From NCBI RefSeq assembly GCF_018420025.1, contig NZ_JAEDAM010000057.1, positions 1 through 6,493 on the forward strand: 6,493 nt of DNA. Reading direction: 5' to 3'. Positions 1 to 6,493 of this stretch are shown here, piece after piece; the first letter of the stretch is position 1; the number at the start of each line of letters is the position of its first letter. The translations under genes were made by a program, and so were the position numbers. This stretch comes from Candidatus Vampirococcus lugosii (lineage in GTDB: Bacteria > Patescibacteriota > Gracilibacteria > Absconditabacterales > Absconditicoccaceae). The notes under the pieces were generated by a model. That model made no database searches and had not been told where the DNA came from. It worked only from the letters and a program-made list of their open reading frames with translations.

Positions 1-976
1 AATACTTTTTTACTTCTTCTTCAATATTTTCAATATCTTTTAAATTGTAAAAATCTAAAATTTTAAGTTTTTTTAAACTTATATTAAAAAGATAAACTTG
101 TTCTCTCAATATTCTTAAAAAAGACTTTTGCTCCTCACCAATATCTGAAATATTTTCTTTTATTGCATTTATTGTTTCTTTAGTTTTTGAATTAAAGTAT
201 TCAAATAATCCATCAATTACATCTAATATTTTATTAAAATTATCAATATCAGCTTTTTTATATTCTGTAGAAAATTTTTCTATACTTTGTATCCTAGAAT
301 CTTCAATTTTTGATATACAACAAGGACACTCTTTTTCATTGATTCATAAGTATTCTTTTCATTGTATTTGCCAAGCAACATATCTACTATTTATAGAATT
401 GTTTTTTAAATAATTACTATATCACAAAAAATCACTTCAAGGATTATTTATTTTTCTAGCAGATTCTAATCATTTAAATATAGTTGAACTTTGATTTATA
501 TCTCAACCTTGATTAATTTTTACAAAATCTAAAAAATTATCTGTATCGCTTATTAATTTATCTAAATCTGGATTTTCTTGAAAAGTTCATCTTAAATTTT
601 TTACTAAATTGTCAACTTCTTGAATTCATTTTTTATAAGTTTCATTTTCTATAAAAATTGAAAAACTATTTTCTAAAATTTCATCTTTCTTAAAAGTATA
701 TTGTTTTATATAATCTTCATTAAAAATTTTTATTTTTTTAATATCTTCTAATCATAAAATTTCAGATTTTTTAGTATTATCACCAATATATTTATAAGGT
801 TTTAATAATTTTTCATCTTCTTCATTTTTTTCTAAATAATATTTAAATGCCCTTGCAATAGTACTTTTTCAAGTTCAATTTATAGCATACTTGATATTTA
901 ACTTTTCTTTTTCTAATTTTATTACTCATTTTTCAATATTTCAACAATATTTTAATTCTATATTTAATTCAGCCAT
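1..976 (-). CDS. AAA_13/ABC-type ATPase, RloC/PrrC-like; N-terminal ~325 aa only, the 3' end runs off the left edge of the window
   Basis: ATG at 976..974. The frame stays open to position 1 under table 25, with 13 in-frame TGA and no TAA/TAG. Translation begins MAELNIELKYCGNIEKGVIKLEKEKLNIKYAINGTGKSTIARAF. This contains a Walker A P-loop, NGTGKST (~860..886), in which both Gly are TGA (869..871, 875..877 on the + strand as tca). The P-loop is followed by a long helical/coiled-coil-looking region containing ECPCCISKI (CPxC at 317..328). That layout is typical of PF13166-type ATPases, recalled from memory. Confidence 0.75.
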
Positions 977-979
977 CCC

Positions 980-1771
980 TTACTTCTTAAAAATTAAAAT
1001 ATATTCATGTTTAAAAATATAATAATCGCTATTTAAAGCTCTATATCTCCAAATTCAACCACTTCAAATTTTTCATCTATTTCACTCCATATTTTTTACA
1101 ATAATTGATTTTAGTTTAAATCAGACTTTTTGAGCTTCGTTCATACATTGAAACCCGAGTGGAATCCATTCGCTATTTGCATATTTATCTCAAATAACCA
1201 CTCACATATATCAACCTGATTTTAACAATTCAAAACTATTTTGCAAAACATTATGAAACATATTTAAAAAATCTTGCAAATTTCAAGCATTTGATAAATC
1301 TTTTTTATCTTCACTAAACTTGATTATATCAAAATAAGGAGGATGTAAAAGCACTAAATCAACTCAAGTTTTTTTATGATGTTTTAGTATTTTTTGAATA
1401 TCTTTTTTTGTTTCTTCGCTTCCACTATCTCATAATCAAAAATGCTTTTGTATTTTATCTGATGCAATAAGTTCTTTAGCTCTTGCAACAAGTTCTTCTT
1501 TTAAATCAATTCAAATAATATTTCTTTCCAACTTTTCACATTCAATTGCAGTTGTCCCACTTCACAAAAATAAATCCAAAACCCATCATCATTTTTTGGT
1601 ATATCTTTTTATTAGTTGATAAGGAATTTGTGGCACAAAATTTCAATGATAAAAATTACTATGTTTTCAGCTTTTGTCTCTTTCATTTATTATCCAAAGA
1701 CTATCAGTCAAAATATCTTCATATTTTTTCCAATTACCATTATTCAGATCTAAATCATTAAACTTTGGCAT
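980..1771 (-). CDS. SAM-dependent N6-adenine/N4-cytosine-type DNA methyltransferase-like protein, 263 aa
   Basis: ATG at 1771..1769 and TAA at 982..980. There are 18 in-frame TGA and no other stops. Motif X/I is YHGNFVPQIPYQLIKRYTKKGGWVLDLFLGSGTTAIECEKLERNIIGIDL (FLGSGTT ~1550..1570, first Gly = TGA at 1562..1564). The catalytic motif IV is LVLLHPPY (1334..1345). The C-terminus is GIWRYRALNSDYYIFKHEYILIFKK, which resembles the conserved HEYILVF block of PF01555-type methylases. Confidence 0.85.
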
Positions 1772-1787
1772 TTATATAAAGAATTTA

Positions 1788-1816
1788 ATTATAAATATCA
1801 ATATTTTTTTTATTAA
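1788..1816 (-). promoter_or_regulatory. candidate sigma70-type promoter for the methyltransferase-ATPase pair
   Basis: On the minus strand: TTAATA (1816..1811), a 17-nt spacer, then a perfect TATAAT (1793..1788), 16 nt upstream of the ATG at 1771. Such hexamers arise easily by chance in DNA this AT-rich. Confidence 0.3.
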
Positions 1817-1838
1817 ATTTTAAAAATGTGATATTAAT

Positions 1839-1854
1839 GAAAAAATATTTTTTC
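1839..1854. repeat. 16-bp perfect palindrome GAAAAAATATTTTTTC
   Basis: The sequence is exactly self-complementary. It abuts a second inverted repeat, CTAAAAA (1854..1860) / TTTTTAG (1871..1877), with a 10-nt loop. Confidence 0.7.
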
Positions 1855-1979
1855 TAAAAAATAGAATATCTTTTTAGTTTATCAAAATAATCAGTTAGTA
1901 AATTAAATATACAAAAACATTAATTAATTTAATATTTCAATTTATTTTACTATATTAAATCATTATTTTAATATCAAAA

Positions 1980-2525
1980 TTAAAGTTGATAATATTTGTT
2001 ATAAAATGGTGCTATTGCTGCTTTAAATGCAATTGAGAATTCATCTTTTCTAGTAAACATATTATCAGACCAAGCTCACATACTTCAATTTTTACTTCTT
2101 ATATTTAAAGATCAGGATAAATCTCACATTATATCTCAAAGTTCTTTTCATTTTATATAAAGTTCATTTTCTATTAATTTAGGGACTTCCATCATAGGAG
2201 AAAATCAGAAATGTCATTCTCAATCATTATTTAATACAAATACTATTCAAAATATATATTTTTTTCATAAAAAATCGCTTGTTCATCATTCTATTCATAT
2301 ATAATAATCTGCTTTTATTCATTTTTTTTGTAAGTTGTTAGCTCTGTTTTTTGCTCATTTCATTGTCTCTTCAATAGATAAAGGCATATCTGAAATATCT
2401 GAAGAGATTTTTTCTGTTATAAAAAATATTTCATTAAATATATTTGATAAATATGGAGTTTCTTTAATTCATTCTTTTATTCAATTAATTTTAGGTTCTC
2501 TTGTTGTTCATATTGCTATTATCAT
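1980..2525 (-). CDS. yjjX: inosine/xanthosine triphosphatase (non-canonical purine NTP phosphatase), YjjX/DUF84 family, 181 aa
   Basis: ATG at 2525..2523 and TAA at 1982..1980. The length is 546 nt, with 19 in-frame TGA. Translation is MIIAIGTTREPKINGIKEG...SDMPLSIEETMKGAKNRANN...KADYYIGIEGG...GKELGDIMGDLSGSLNIRSKNGSMGAWSDNMFTRKDEFSIAFKAAIAPFYN. It is colinear with E. coli YjjX as recalled from memory (EQPFGSEETRAGARNR / ADFWVAIEAG / GEALGPVM...KEGAIG...LSPF). Confidence 0.9.
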
Positions 2526-2786
2526 AATAATATATTTGTATAAAATTATAAATAATTATTAATATCTTTTTTATAAATATTTTCAAGCTTAATTTAAAAT
2601 ATTTAATTTAAAATTTAAAAACTATATTTTTTGCACAAAAAAATTTAATCAATTTGGTAAATAATTGTTTATAAATAATTATTTAGAAATTTTGTTCTAT
2701 TAAAGATAAGTTTAAAATTAATTATATTGAAAAATAAAAAAAAATAAATATAAAAGATATATTTAATTATATTATAGAAATAATAA
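2526..2786. promoter_or_regulatory. divergent intergenic region between yjjX (-) and serS (+); promoters for both are expected here
   Basis: 261 bp with no ORF on either strand under table 25. It contains several TTGAAA/TATAAT-like hexamers, a 26-bp near-palindrome and A/T-tract direct repeats. No specific promoter can be assigned with confidence. Confidence 0.4.
2659..2684. repeat. 26-bp near-perfect palindrome (12 of 13 base pairs symmetric)
   Basis: AAATAATTGTTTATAAATAATTATTT compared with its reverse complement differs only at the pair 2667/2676. Confidence 0.6.
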
Positions 2787-4049
2787 ATGATAGATCTTAA
2801 AAAATTCCGTGAAAATTATGAATGGTATATCAAAAAAACTGAAGAGAAATGAATTAAATTAGATTTTCCAAAATTTATGGCAATGGATTTACAACTAAAA
2901 CAAATAAAATTTGAATTAGACAATCTTAATCAAGAAAGAAATGAAATTTCAAAAGAAATTCCTAACTTGAAAAAAGAATGAAAAGATACTGAAAATCTTG
3001 TAAATAAAGTAAAAGATCTTAAATCTGAAATTGAAGACAAACAAAAAAAATATAATGAAATATATAATGACTTTTATGAAATTTATATTAGAATACCAAA
3101 TCCTGCATTTGATGATGTTCATATTTGAAAATCTGATGAAGAAAATAAAGTTGCTTATTATGTATGAGAAAAACCAAAATTTAATTTTGAGCCATTAGCA
3201 CATTATGAATTATTAGAAAAAAGAGATATGTTGGATCAATGAAGAAGTGCAAAAGTTTCTTGATCAAGATTTTATTATATTAAAGATTGATTAGTAAGAC
3301 TAGAATTAGCTTTGATAAGTTATACTATTGATAAACTTAGTAAAAAATGATTTAGACCTATTATATGACCAAATTTAGTAAGATATAATTCTATGCTTTC
3401 TACAGGTTTTTTTCCAGCTGAAAAAAATGAAATATATACTGTAAATCCTGATGAAGATGATCTTTATTTAATATGAACATCTGAAGTTACTATGATAGCT
3501 CAACATATGGATGAAATTTTAGATGTTGATAAATTACCTTTGAGATATGTATCTTTTTCTCCTTGTTATAGAAGAGAAGCTTGAACTTATGGTAAAGATA
3601 GTAAATGAATGATAAGAGTACATCAATTTGAAAAAGTGGAAATGGTAAGTTTTACTAAACCTGAAGATAGTATTAAAGAACATGAATTGATTTATGAAAT
3701 AGAAGAAGAAATAGTAAAAGAATTATGACTTCATTGTCAAAAAATAGATATTTGTACATGAGATCTATGATTTCATGCTGCAAAAAAATATGATTTGGAA
3801 GCTTGGTTTCCGTGATTGACTACATACAAAGAAATAACTTCTTGTAGTAATTGTACTGATTTCCAATCTAGAAGAGCAAAAATTAAAATGAAAGATGAAA
3901 AATCAAAAGATTTTGTTCATACATTAAACGGAACTGCAATAGCTCTTGCTAGAATAATGGCTTGTATTGTTGAAAATTATCAAACAAAAGATATGAAAAT
4001 TGAAGTTCCTGAGGTTCTTAAAAAATATATTTGAGAAGAATATTTGTAA
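2787..4049 (+). CDS. serS: seryl-tRNA synthetase (class II, bacterial type), 420 aa
   Basis: ATG at 2787 and TAA at 4047..4049, followed immediately by a second TAA. There are 17 in-frame TGA. An N-terminal K/E-rich coiled-coil arm is present. Conserved blocks are [14 protein letters not shown] (Gly = TGA at 3261), LIGTSEV, the motif 2 block [30 protein letters not shown] (TGA at 3582 and 3606), [21 protein letters not shown] (TGA at 3759 and 3768), and the motif 3 block [24 protein letters not shown]. The track ORF 3816..4034 is the in-frame tail of this gene. Confidence 0.97.
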
Positions 4050-4108
4050 TAAATATTTTAAATTTTATATAGATAATCTATTGAAAAAAATATTAAATTT
4101 ATTAAATA

Positions 4109-4136
4109 TTGTTAAGTTACATTTTTTATATATAAA
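4109..4136 (+). promoter_or_regulatory. candidate promoter for the 4146 and 4903 gene pair
   Basis: TTGTTA (4109..4114), a 16-nt spacer, then TATAAA (4131..4136), ending 9 nt before the ATG at 4146. This would imply a very short leader or none. It could be a chance match in AT-rich sequence. Confidence 0.25.
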
Positions 4137-4145
4137 ATTAGTAAA

Positions 4146-4892
4146 ATGTTAAAAAAACCTAATTTTTATATTTATTTTAGTTTTTTTTTGTTAATTTTTT
4201 ATTTTGTTTTTTCATGAAATACAAATTCTTTTTCTTGGTTATCTTTTTGGACAGTTAATCAAAATATTAAAGTTTCCGAAAATTATATTAAAGATTTCTT
4301 GATTGATGATATGGCAATAAATTCTTTGTTGGCAAATTTAAGTGTTTGAAAATGAACTTATTCTCAAAAACACTTTTTGGCAAAATGAATTGATGCATCT
4401 CAAACAACTAAAAATTTATTGGAAACTAAAGAAAGTCAACTTTTGAAATGAACTTCTGATACTAAAGTAGTTTTGGAAGCTTATATAAATAATATAAGAA
4501 ATACTGTCCTTGATAATCAACAAATTTTGAATAATTTAAGATATGAAAAATCTCAATTTGATCAAAAAAGAAATTTTTGTGATGAACAAAAAAAAATGTG
4601 AGATACTATGTTTTTTAATTGATTAGATCAAGATAATTCAGAACTTGCTATCAGATGACTTGAAACTTCTTTGGATAATTCGCCTTGTTATATTAACAAT
4701 AGAGTATATTCAAATGTTTATGAAAATTTAATAAAAAAAATTGATTTTTATAATTCATTATTATCTAGGAAACAAGTGATTTTGGAAAATAATGTTGATT
4801 TGATATTAAATAATTTTGAATTGTTTGAAAATAATCAATTGGAAGAATTGGCAGGACTTAGAAATGAATTAAGATCTTTTAATATTAATTAA
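4146..4892 (+). CDS. hypothetical membrane-anchored/exported helical protein, 248 aa
   Basis: ATG at 4146 is the first ATG after the in-frame TAA at 4113. TAA at 4890..4892. There are 8 in-frame TGA and no TAA/TAG. The N-terminus MLKKPNFYIYFSFFLLIFYFVFS looks like a signal peptide or TM anchor. The remainder is N/Q/K/E/L-rich and heptad-like. I recognise no family. The track ORF 4671..4892 is its in-frame tail. Confidence 0.7.
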
Positions 4893-4902
4893 AATAAATA
4901 CA

Positions 4903-6129
4903 ATGAAAAAAATAATTTATTTAATAATATTTTTTGTTTTTGCATTATTTATTTATGTTCAAAAACAATTAGTATTAAATCCAAAAAGTATTGATATTTT
5001 ATGATATAGTATAAATTTATCTAGTTATTACAAAGCTAATTATTTTTCATATTTTTATTATAGAGATAAAAATCCTAGATATGTTTTGGAAAATTGAATA
5101 TCTTCAGATTATGTTGAATATTGTCATAATGAAGAAAAAAATTGTTTAATAATTCCACATCAAGAATCTTATTCATCTTATTTATGGATAACTAGTGTTC
5201 AATATGTTGGCTCTATGCTTCAATCAGATAGACTTAAAAATCTTTATGGTATTATAGATAATCTTACAAATATGTCTCCATATTGGACATATCCATATCA
5301 ATTTGGACAACTTATGATTCCTATTGATAAAACTTTAAAAGCAAGTGATGAAAAAAAGAAAAAATCTTGGGATCAATCATTAATATTATGAAAAAAATGA
5401 ATTAATTACAATTGTGATCAAAACAAAAAAAATGAAATATTAGCAATTTCTAATGAAGATTTTTTTAAAATAATGATTTCAAAAGATGAAAAATATGAAA
5501 AACTTAAAAATCCATGTAGTTCATATAATATTCCTTATCAACAATGATTTAATAGTTTCTTTCATAATTCAGATTGGGAAGATTCAGCACAAAATTTTAA
5601 ATTAGCTAGTTTTCATGATTGAGTTCCTACTGCAAGTTCTTCTATGGTTTCAATTGTTGCTGGTAGAGGTTGACAACATATGCAAAGTTTACAATTATGG
5701 TTTTCTCAATTTATATCTCATATGGAAGAATTAGAAAAAGCGAAAAAAGAAGAACAAATAGAATTTTATGAAAATATGGCTGATGAAGCTATAACAAAAG
5801 CTATATTTGAACTTCAATTGCAATTACTTACTCAAATTGATGAATCATTATGAAATAAACATGATTGTTATCGTAATTATCAATGTATGTTAGATAATTG
5901 AATATTATCAGTAGCAGTAAAAGAAAATATAAATTATTGTATACAAAATACAGAATTTGAAGAATTAAAAGATATAGATTTTAATACAAATAATGCATTA
6001 TGTTTTACTTTATCTAAAGCAATACAAGACTCTTACATAAATGAAAATTGAACTCTTATAAATCCACGAAACAAAAATCTTAAATTTAAATTTGATGATT
6101 ATAATTATAATACTTGGTGGGTATGATAA
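4903..6129 (+). CDS. hypothetical exported/membrane-anchored cysteine-containing protein, 408 aa
   Basis: ATG at 4903, 10 nt after the previous stop. TAA at 6127..6129. The frame was checked codon by codon, giving 11 in-frame TGA and no TAA/TAG. The N-terminus MKKIIYLIIFFVFALFIYV is a hydrophobic anchor. There are about 9 Cys, including YCHNEEKNC and DCYRNYQC. A helical, W/Y-rich middle region is present (SYLWITSVQYVGS...SPYWTYPYQFGQL). I recognise no family. Confidence 0.75.
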
Positions 6130-6327
6130 ATTTATTTAGTATATTATTTTAATAATAAATAAATGTTTATTGATTTATCAAGTAGCTTTACAATTGTCTT
6201 AATATAAGCTGTCAATCAATTTATTAATAATATTTACCTGAATATTTTTTTACAAATTTAAATACAATTAATATATATTATATAATTGAAAATTTTTCCG
6301 AAATAGAAATCAAAGAAATTATTTACA

Positions 6328-6350
6328 GAATTAACAAAATTCGCTTTTTT
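6328..6350 (+). terminator. weak intrinsic-terminator-like hairpin plus T-run
   Basis: GAATT (6328..6332), loop AACAA, AATTC (6338..6342), then GC and TTTTTT (6345..6350). The stem is only 5 bp and AT-rich, and it lies about 200 nt downstream of the stop at 6129. Confidence 0.2.
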
Positions 6351-6445
6351 CTCTAATTTAGGTGTAGAAGATTAAATAAATTTTCTCTTGAAAATAAATA
6401 ATTATTATTTATATTGAAATTACATTTATATTTTAAAAAATTTGT

Positions 6446-6493
6446 ATGAGAAAATTGTTGTTATTACTAGTACTTTGACTTATTCCGGTTTTT
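6446..6493 (+). CDS. possible start of a third exported protein (only 16 codons visible)
   Basis: ATG at 6446 followed by MRKLLLLLVLGLIPVF, where Gly = TGA. This looks like a signal peptide, and the ORF runs off the right edge. It is too short to confirm. Confidence 0.3.

Follow-up and report, generated by a model that had tools for sequence, protein, structure and literature searches.

A candidate defence ATPase of the PDC-S06 family adjoining a type II DNA methyltransferase gene in the recoded bacterium Candidatus Vampirococcus lugosii

Type II restriction–modification (R-M) cassettes with two methylases, such as DpnII, combine a methylase of the D12 class, a second one of the PF01555 type and an endonuclease, while CPxC is the form that the CxxC motif takes in the Rad50 hook. 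Genes reminiscent of both stand side by side at one end of a 6,493-nt stretch of DNA from Candidatus Vampirococcus lugosii (contig NZ_JAEDAM010000057.1, positions 1 to 6,493; the whole stretch is hereafter called the window), where the gene of a DNA methyltransferase, M1, is followed after three nucleotides by the 5′ part of a gene for an ATPase with an ATP-binding cassette (ABC) of the SMC-like type. A described protein for comparison is RloC, an anticodon nuclease that excises the wobble nucleotide, with 658–897 residues; it has a CxxC motif in an insert and a C-proximal catalytic triad Arg-X3-Glu-X36-52-His (Davidov & Kaufmann 2008, PMC2610378). The motif of the HEPN RNase superfamily is Rx4-6H (PMC3710099), and PrrC and the rlo genes are precedents for ATPase-effector genes residing in R-M loci (PMC2610378, PMC3710099).

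The first-pass annotation of the window regarded the two genes as a restriction-linked defence module of PrrC/RloC architecture. Comparison with homologous loci sustains this idea only in part: relatives of the ATPase do occur in defence islands, often beside R-M genes, but the pair itself is not conserved. The reading that we favour, with a probability of about 0.58, is that a stand-alone ATPase of the PADLOC candidate family PDC-S06, acting in an RloC-like mode, is carried as cargo in the variable slot of a type II R-M cassette. Its position in the cassette is then an ordinary defence-island arrangement and not a new two-gene system. The features on which the analysis is based are the following.

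2..976, minus strand: 5′ part (325 codons) of the gene for an ABC/SMC-like ATPase of about 700 residues, AAA_13/PDC-S06 (PDLC04889), assigned by hidden Markov model (HMM) matches
317..328, minus strand: CPCC, residues 217–220, a zinc-hook-like motif in the helical insert; C217, P218 and C220 are invariant in 80/80 homologues
860..880, minus strand: Walker A, NGTGKST, residues 33–39, read directly; G34, G36 and K37 are conserved in 79/80 homologues
977..982, minus strand: gene junction, read directly; TAA at 982..980, then GGG at 979..977, then the ATPase ATG, leaving a 3-nt gap
983..1771, minus strand: M1, a DNA methyltransferase of 263 residues, PF01555, assigned by Pfam and PADLOC HMMs
1334..1345, minus strand: M1 motif IV, HPPY, residues 143–146, an unusual variant of D/N/S-PPY, invariant in the 120/120 closest homologues
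1550..1570, minus strand: M1 motif I, FLGSGTT, residues 68–74, SAM-binding (S-adenosylmethionine), read directly; it falls on the C-terminal part of the PF01555 profile
1772..1979, no strand: AT-rich spacer of 208 bp between the yjjX stop codon and the M1 start, from coordinates

The ATPase open reading frame (ORF) starts with ATG at 976..974 and runs through 325 codons without a stop as far as position 2, where the contig edge interrupts the gene. Even this fragment matched the PDC-S06 model PDLC04889 with E = 3.7e-84 (residues 5–325 on profile positions 2–318 of 693), while against AAA_13 (PF13166) it scored 30.1 bits, that is, below the gathering cut-off of 36 bits. An extension was provided by L001, a 1,162-bp Logan contig from the same sample carrying P0107, which overlaps the last 229 nt of the window with a sole difference in the length of one T-run (T6/T7). 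Two +1 shifts fall in T-runs of L001, and the first of these sites is in frame (T6) in the window itself: the T6 run at about 118–123 of the window corresponds to T7 in L001, and a second T7 run, at L001 positions about 826–832, breaks the ATPase frame near codon 520. These T7 runs could be due to assembly error, strain heterogeneity, slippage or partial pseudogenisation. After frame correction the window and L001 gave a composite protein of 627 residues, which matched PDC-S06 with E = 1.5e-194 (profile positions 2–612 of 693) and passed the AAA_13 cut-off with 62.6 bits. The corresponding values for a full-length homologue, L007, were E = 1.1e-264 (profile positions 1–687) and 55.3 bits. Judging by these profile matches, the ATPase is a member of Pfam family AAA_13 and of PDC-S06. 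The homologues used for comparison were collected from 80 loci of GTDB species representatives, with full-length genes rebuilt from the loci; they come from Bacillota, Proteobacteria, Actinomycetota, Cyanobacteria and Archaea and share 35–43% identity with the ATPase. At 78 of these loci the protein has 688–745 residues (two ORF calls exceed this, with 763 and 859), so that approximately 70–80 residues of the window's protein should still be absent from the composite.

The order of parts is an ABC N-lobe, a helical insert with the invariant CPxC, an ABC C-lobe and a distinct C-terminal domain. Both the Walker A loop and the CPxC named by the first-pass annotation were read in the fragment, the latter lying between Walker A and the ABC signature (at about residue 431). 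This signature, LSFGEKNAF, as well as Walker B (FIVLDDP), the Walker B/D-loop stretch FIVLDDPISSFD and the H-loop LTHD were found in the L001 extension of the composite. The insert that had been described as coiled-coil-like is helical indeed, occupying about 390 residues between the two ABC lobes, but in the AlphaFold model of a 39%-identical homologue, P0059 (pLDDT 85.7), it is composed of about ten short helices and one helix of 52 residues, with the CPxC placed in a short hairpin loop between helices 194–212 and 229–238. It is thus modelled as a multi-helix bundle rather than a long two-stranded coil of the Rad50 type. The best neighbours of the P0059 model in the PDB were the heads of SMC, Rad50 and RecN and the retron PtuA complex; structure comparison of the ATPase body with the SMC/Rad50/RecN heads gave E = 1e-8 to 1e-5. 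This is the fold class expected for AAA_13 and not evidence of a housekeeping role. In the PDC-S06 alignment four near-invariant cysteines, C11, C217, C220 and C687 (L007 numbering), are distributed over three parts of the protein, and these could form one intrachain zinc site instead of a Rad50-like hook between chains.

M1 is encoded on the minus strand from ATG at 1771..1769 to the last codon at 985..983, with the stop codon TAA at 982..980. It scored 106.2 bits against PF01555 (cut-off 26.7, E = 3.2e-30) and matched the PADLOC MTase_II model PDLC03351 with E = 1.2e-100. The order of its motifs is permuted, motif I preceding motif IV (N6/N4 superfamily). No paper on an HPPY-type motif IV was found in the literature; the target base may be N6-A or N4-C. 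More than 7,800 homologues with 60–79% identity were registered in Gracilibacteria, Absconditabacteria, Parcubacteria, Saccharibacteria and other members of the candidate phyla radiation. The idea of a housekeeping or RNA methylase, suggested by such high conservation, was ruled out by the R-M cassette context and by the scores of RNA-methyltransferase models, which were all far under their cut-offs (RlmD 18.5 against 458, TIGR01177 20.9 against 316, CmoM 22.6 against 366); the expectation that M1 modifies DNA rather than rRNA or tRNA therefore held. Its wide conservation is accounted for by these cassette contexts.

The contexts of M1 were examined in three annotated loci and 80 metagenome loci, 57 of which had enough flank to look for a second methylase, M2. 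The order found was M1, one or several variable slot genes, M2, with M2, a D12-class methylase (PADLOC MTase_II, E = 4.5e-117), located 0.67–3.2 kb downstream in 55 of the 57. The start of the slot gene lies a few nucleotides at most from the M1 stop codon, and the families occupying the slot are alternative and unrelated:

X286 family, about 300 residues, 43/80 loci: no Pfam or PADLOC match, candidate restriction endonuclease by position only
IceA/NlaIII-like, 13 loci: PADLOC REase_II, E = 6e-33
389-residue family, 8 loci: no Pfam or PADLOC match
T5orf172 + DUF4357, 4 loci: GIY-YIG-like nuclease
HNH_2 + NmeDI_C, 2 loci: HNH and restriction endonuclease models
AIPR, 2 loci: abortive-infection (Abi) protein
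Slot in L092 (M1 84% identical, also recoded), 1 locus: second PF01555 methylase, an N6_Mtase-like gene and a Tsp45I-like endonuclease

Across L092–L171 the slot thus appears as a variable-cargo site. The endonucleases in it belong to at least five unrelated families, it also accepts AIPR and T5orf172/GIY-YIG-like genes, and the X286 and 389-residue families may be undescribed restriction enzymes. Gene order in these relatives identifies M1 as the putative leading methyltransferase of a widespread type II R-M cassette. At the L087 locus the junction …IFKK-TAA-AAG-ATG leads into an IceA/NlaIII-like endonuclease, and …IFKK-TAA-GGG-ATG of the window has the same form, which places the ATPase precisely in the variable slot of the cassette. 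The first-pass annotation found the layout unlike any standard type I, II or III system; for M1 this turned out to be wrong, although a Pfam scan did confirm that the window contains no endonuclease, specificity subunit or helicase. One cassette from Parcubacteria (L088/L089, 8735–9499) has a gene for a DpnI-family, methyl-directed endonuclease immediately behind that of the D12 methylase, which would be a strange pairing if GmATC is the product of M2.

The anticipated conservation of M1-ATPase adjacency failed to appear in either direction. No M1 homologue was detected by tblastn (E ≤ 1e-3) within 10 kb on either side of the ATPase at any of its 80 loci, and no ATPase at any of the 80 M1 loci. 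Locus L085/P0109 (93% identity) was initially taken for another strain sharing this gene order, but proved to be the same DNA, 100% identical over 339–6303 of the window and called with table 4. The M1-ATPase pair is therefore not a conserved module and is seen in one genome only. Nor did any other family recur next to the ATPase at more than 9 of its 80 loci, and the recurring ones lie at variable offsets, which fits the single-gene label given to the family in PADLOC. Among 137 immediate neighbour ORFs the commonest Pfam families were those of R-M methylases (Eco57I 5, MmeI 4, N6_N4 4, N6_Mtase 4), and large co-directional upstream neighbours included type IIG enzymes of the MmeI/Eco57I kind, type I HsdR, PF01555 fusions, HD-CE/HATPase, SbcC-like, ResIII and NERD-UvrD proteins. 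The family is present on 818 plasmid records, 607 of them conjugative, and the copy on an Escherichia coli IncC/F plasmid adjoins a cytosine methylase, a type II endonuclease and an integrase. No member was found in the phage collection, and only about 13 full-length matches in IMG/VR. Clostridium tetanomorphum, Sporomusa ovata and Caproicibacter fermentans (L018, L019, L020) share one PDC-S06 gene together with its six neighbours on either side, and an island common to three genera implies recent horizontal transfer. The PDC-S06 family spreads horizontally as a single gene, without an obligate partner.

The window has about 20% GC and its six long genes become visible on read-through of TGA. 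Gene calling with table 11 was dropped, as ORFs of the window break into fragments, and table 4 (TGA = Trp) was ruled out by the position of TGA codons on invariant glycines. There are 13 TGA codons in the ATPase fragment, among them those of Walker A G34 and G36 (Gly in 79/80 homologues) and G206 (80/80), and in L001 called with table 4 the tryptophans fall on invariant glycines of the ABC signature. Since TGA occupies invariant glycines in Walker A, at G206 and in the ABC signature, it encodes Gly and not Trp, and code 25, as presumed by the first-pass annotation, applies. TGA makes up 75–76% of Gly codons in M1 and the ATPase against 69–100% in serS, yjjX and two unknown ORFs. At third codon positions the GC content (GC3) amounts to 0.07 in the ATPase gene and 0.15 in M1, the other four window genes having 0.07–0.12. 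TGA usage and GC3 point to both genes as long-adapted residents of the recoded host.

Coordinates given earlier for the methyltransferase, ending 3 nt before the ATPase ATG, and for the 208-bp spacer were reproduced exactly; behind the spacer lies the stop codon (1982..1980) of yjjX (PF01931, E = 2e-34). M1 and the ATPase gene are probably co-transcribed, and the spacer probably holds a promoter for the pair. The promoter-like signals ascribed to it, however, do not exceed chance level: the region 900..2800 (about 18% GC) contains 23 sigma-70-like matches versus 21.2 ± 4.6 in shuffled sequences. A scan of the same region registered no terminators, and scans of the window for tRNA genes, Rfam families and repeats returned nothing. 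Elsewhere in the window there are two consecutive plus-strand ORFs at 4146–4892 and 4903–6129 (248 and 408 residues) with hydrophobic N-termini and no significant Pfam match. The divergent yjjX/serS intergenic region, 2556–2786 (about 15% GC), contains many AT-rich imperfect inverted repeats, none of which rises above the low-complexity background.

In the C-terminal domain of the ATPase about 190 residues after the H-loop are strongly conserved (YLRRxxEI, LFHKRxxP, YEKLQxYR, NETFHxENDYxxQLNPxxYxxVPxYVxxxCD) with an invariant polar set RR..E, H.R, Y.K..R and K..E..H.EN..Q.NP. Taken alone, the domain had no match in Pfam or NCBIfam and within PADLOC matched solely PDC-S06; its profile found no match among PDB sequences, and its model (pLDDT 91.3, pTM 0.87) had no Foldseek neighbour better than E = 0.25 in PDB or BFVD. 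A HMMER search of 1.84 billion representatives located it in 545 clusters, and in the best 150 of those matches every full-length protein has it at the extreme C-terminus of about 680–745 residues. With this sole placement the domain belongs to one architecture. Its conservation and position suggest an effector role, probably that of a nuclease or of some other toxic protein.

The following sequence of events may be proposed on the model of RloC, PrrC, Septu and Lamassu. The SMC/Rad50-like ABC head together with the CPxC-bearing helical insert would sense a nucleic-acid or infection cue, an ATP-driven rearrangement would free the activity of the conserved C-terminal domain, and this activity would result in growth arrest or target destruction. 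The cassette slot would then give co-expression and co-inheritance with the R-M genes, not an obligate partnership with the methylase.

Several circumstances weigh against the stand-alone cargo interpretation. The contig ends inside the ATPase gene, beyond which a restriction gene and M2 could be present or absent, and the only contig extending it, L001, has two +1 frameshifts, one contradicted by the window and the other unverified; some members of the population may carry a decaying copy. Recoded genomes contributed only 4 of the 80 methylase loci, that is, close relatives are thinly sampled, and the 3-nt coupling together with the exact endonuclease-slot position could reflect a functional tie to M1 in this lineage. 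HMM, profile and fold searches detected no relationship of the C-terminal domain to any nuclease, which leaves its effector role to conservation and position only. Finally, no experiment on PDC-S06 was found in the literature, where the family is named only as a PADLOC prediction; "defence" is in this case guilt by association.

The main rival is a lineage-specific coupling of the PrrC style, in which R-M proteins would silence the ATPase and release it when a phage disables restriction, making the locus a type II analogue of PrrC/EcoprrI. This possibility gains from the tight junction with M1 exactly inside an R-M cassette, from the precedents of PrrC and the rlo genes and from the recurrent location of ATPase relatives immediately behind R-M genes of several types, downstream and in the same orientation. 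On the other hand, some 85–90% of the homologue loci have no adjacent R-M gene and where there is one its type differs, which makes a specific protein–protein partnership unlikely to be ancestral; no other M1-ATPase pair exists in the 80 + 80 loci, and the PADLOC PrrC model matches the ATPase lobe only. We consider such a guard unlikely. A bolder and somewhat less likely scenario is that the C-terminal domain, as an unrecognised effector fold without relatives in Pfam, PDB or BFVD and driven by the SMC-like ABC head with its CPxC hook, was recruited in the code-25 lineage to the type II endonuclease slot as a second defence line that fires, PrrC-like, on restriction failure. No linkage of this kind to a type II system, and none in a recoded bacterium of the candidate phyla, would have been described before.

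Next comes a true RloC orthologue, the C-terminal domain being a divergent HEPN anticodon nuclease that cleaves tRNA. The size of the protein, its ABC motifs, the CxxC in a helical insert and an additional C-terminal domain all agree with the published description (PMC2610378), AAA_13 is the Pfam family of RloC too, R553-x3-E557 is conserved (100% and 98%), and one JGI record of the family is entitled "wobble nucleotide-excising tRNase", which is an automated label and not a test. The rest of the triad does not follow. The nearest conserved histidines are found at x16 (H574, 93%) and x104 (H662, 99%), and no pair of alignment columns fits R-x3-E-x36-52-H in more than 6 of 80 sequences. The HEPN motif Rx4-6H is present in only 32/80 sequences at its best-placed site, no PrrC or RloC HMM matched the C-terminal domain even at E ≤ 1, its confident model (pLDDT 91) has neither a HEPN nor any other neighbour in PDB or BFVD, and other PDC-S06 sub-models align with the ATPase part only. 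Thus, of the PrrC/RloC architecture assumed at first, the AAA_13 assignment and the RloC-like order of parts stand, while triad spacing, HEPN motif and a nuclease match do not, and orthology with RloC seems improbable.

It is more doubtful still that the ATPase gene is the decaying remnant of a pseudogene, as the two shifted T-runs of its only extending contig would allow. All 325 codons in the window are open and keep every checked invariant residue of the family, the first of the shifted sites has the in-frame T6 in the window, and codon usage is fully host-adapted. Hardly any credit can be given to the idea that M1 and the ATPase form a new ATP-dependent R-M pair in which restriction falls to the ATPase, its C-terminal domain cutting unmethylated DNA. 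The ATPase does occupy the endonuclease slot with the same junction geometry, SMC/Rad50-like heads bind DNA, and no other endonuclease is visible in the window. A self-toxic enzyme, however, should travel with its methylase, and at the 80 ATPase loci M1 never occurs and any methylase nearby only in a minority; besides, the slot has room for more than one gene, and there could be an endonuclease past the contig end. A housekeeping DNA-repair ATPase of the SMC/RecN/RecF type is scarcely credible, since, for all the SMC, Rad50 and RecN heads among the structural neighbours of the body, its distribution over bacteria and archaea is patchy at 35–43% identity, plasmids and islands carry it, SMC_N scored 23.3 bits against a cut-off of 40 with no NCBIfam housekeeping model near its cut-off, and the C-terminal domain is family-specific.

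Since the pairing is seen in one genome only, it is as such unlikely to be of importance. The interest shifts to its components. PDC-S06 resides on hundreds of conjugative enterobacterial plasmids, including IncC and IncF of E. coli, and the confidently modelled fold of its C-terminal domain has no known relative, which makes it a reasonable target in the search for a new effector activity. The M1-slot-M2 cassette is a natural variable cargo site in an R-M operon and can be mined for unannotated endonucleases such as X286 (43/80). TGA = Gly at catalytic glycines in both genes is clean internal evidence for code 25, and both genes show defence genes as long-term residents of reduced genomes.

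Among known systems, two-methylase cassettes such as DpnII are comparable to that of M1: in relatives M1 travels with a D12-class M2 and an endonuclease, and its PDB relatives include 5hek, a chain deposited as DpnA (E = 7e-7). It differs from DpnII by the order M1-R-M2, by permuted M1 motifs and the invariant HPPY, and in the window by the ATPase at the R position. Septu PtuA, Lamassu LmuB and Rad50/SbcC share the ABC/SMC head fold with the ATPase, which has weak HMM matches to PtuA and LmuB; these proteins use a separate nuclease partner (PtuB, LmuA, Mre11/SbcD), whereas PDC-S06 has no conserved partner and a C-terminal domain of its own. PrrC, the tRNA-Lys anticodon nuclease linked to EcoprrI, likewise combines an ABC ATPase with a C-terminal effector inside an R-M locus. 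Its length is about 400 residues, however, its ABC domain is uninterrupted and it is always linked to type Ic hsd genes, none of which are present in the window, while the window ATPase has an insert of about 390 residues and a type II locus; the PADLOC PrrC HMM covers only residues 449–540 of the composite, in the ATPase lobe (profile positions 168–252 of 372).

With RloC the ATPase shares the order of parts, a CxxC insert splitting the ATPase domain, a size within the RloC range, occasional R-M linkage and R-x3-E. Compared with RloC by its published description, it lacks the triad spacing, and HMM and fold searches found no HEPN signal in it. Where RloC has an antiparallel coiled coil with a zinc hook at its apex, the P0059 model shows the helix bundle, and the C-terminal domain is a separate family confined to its own architecture. 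The layout is thus RloC-like, but membership fails on the catalytic motif. The best correspondence is with PDC-S06 (PDLC04889) within AAA_13, as indicated by HMM agreement over the full length, a size of about 700 residues, solitary occurrence and location in defence islands and on plasmids. From the rest of this family the window copy differs in nothing structural, only in its code-25 genome and its place inside a type II R-M cassette. It adds one more member, from an unusual host, to a candidate family that is known but uncharacterised.

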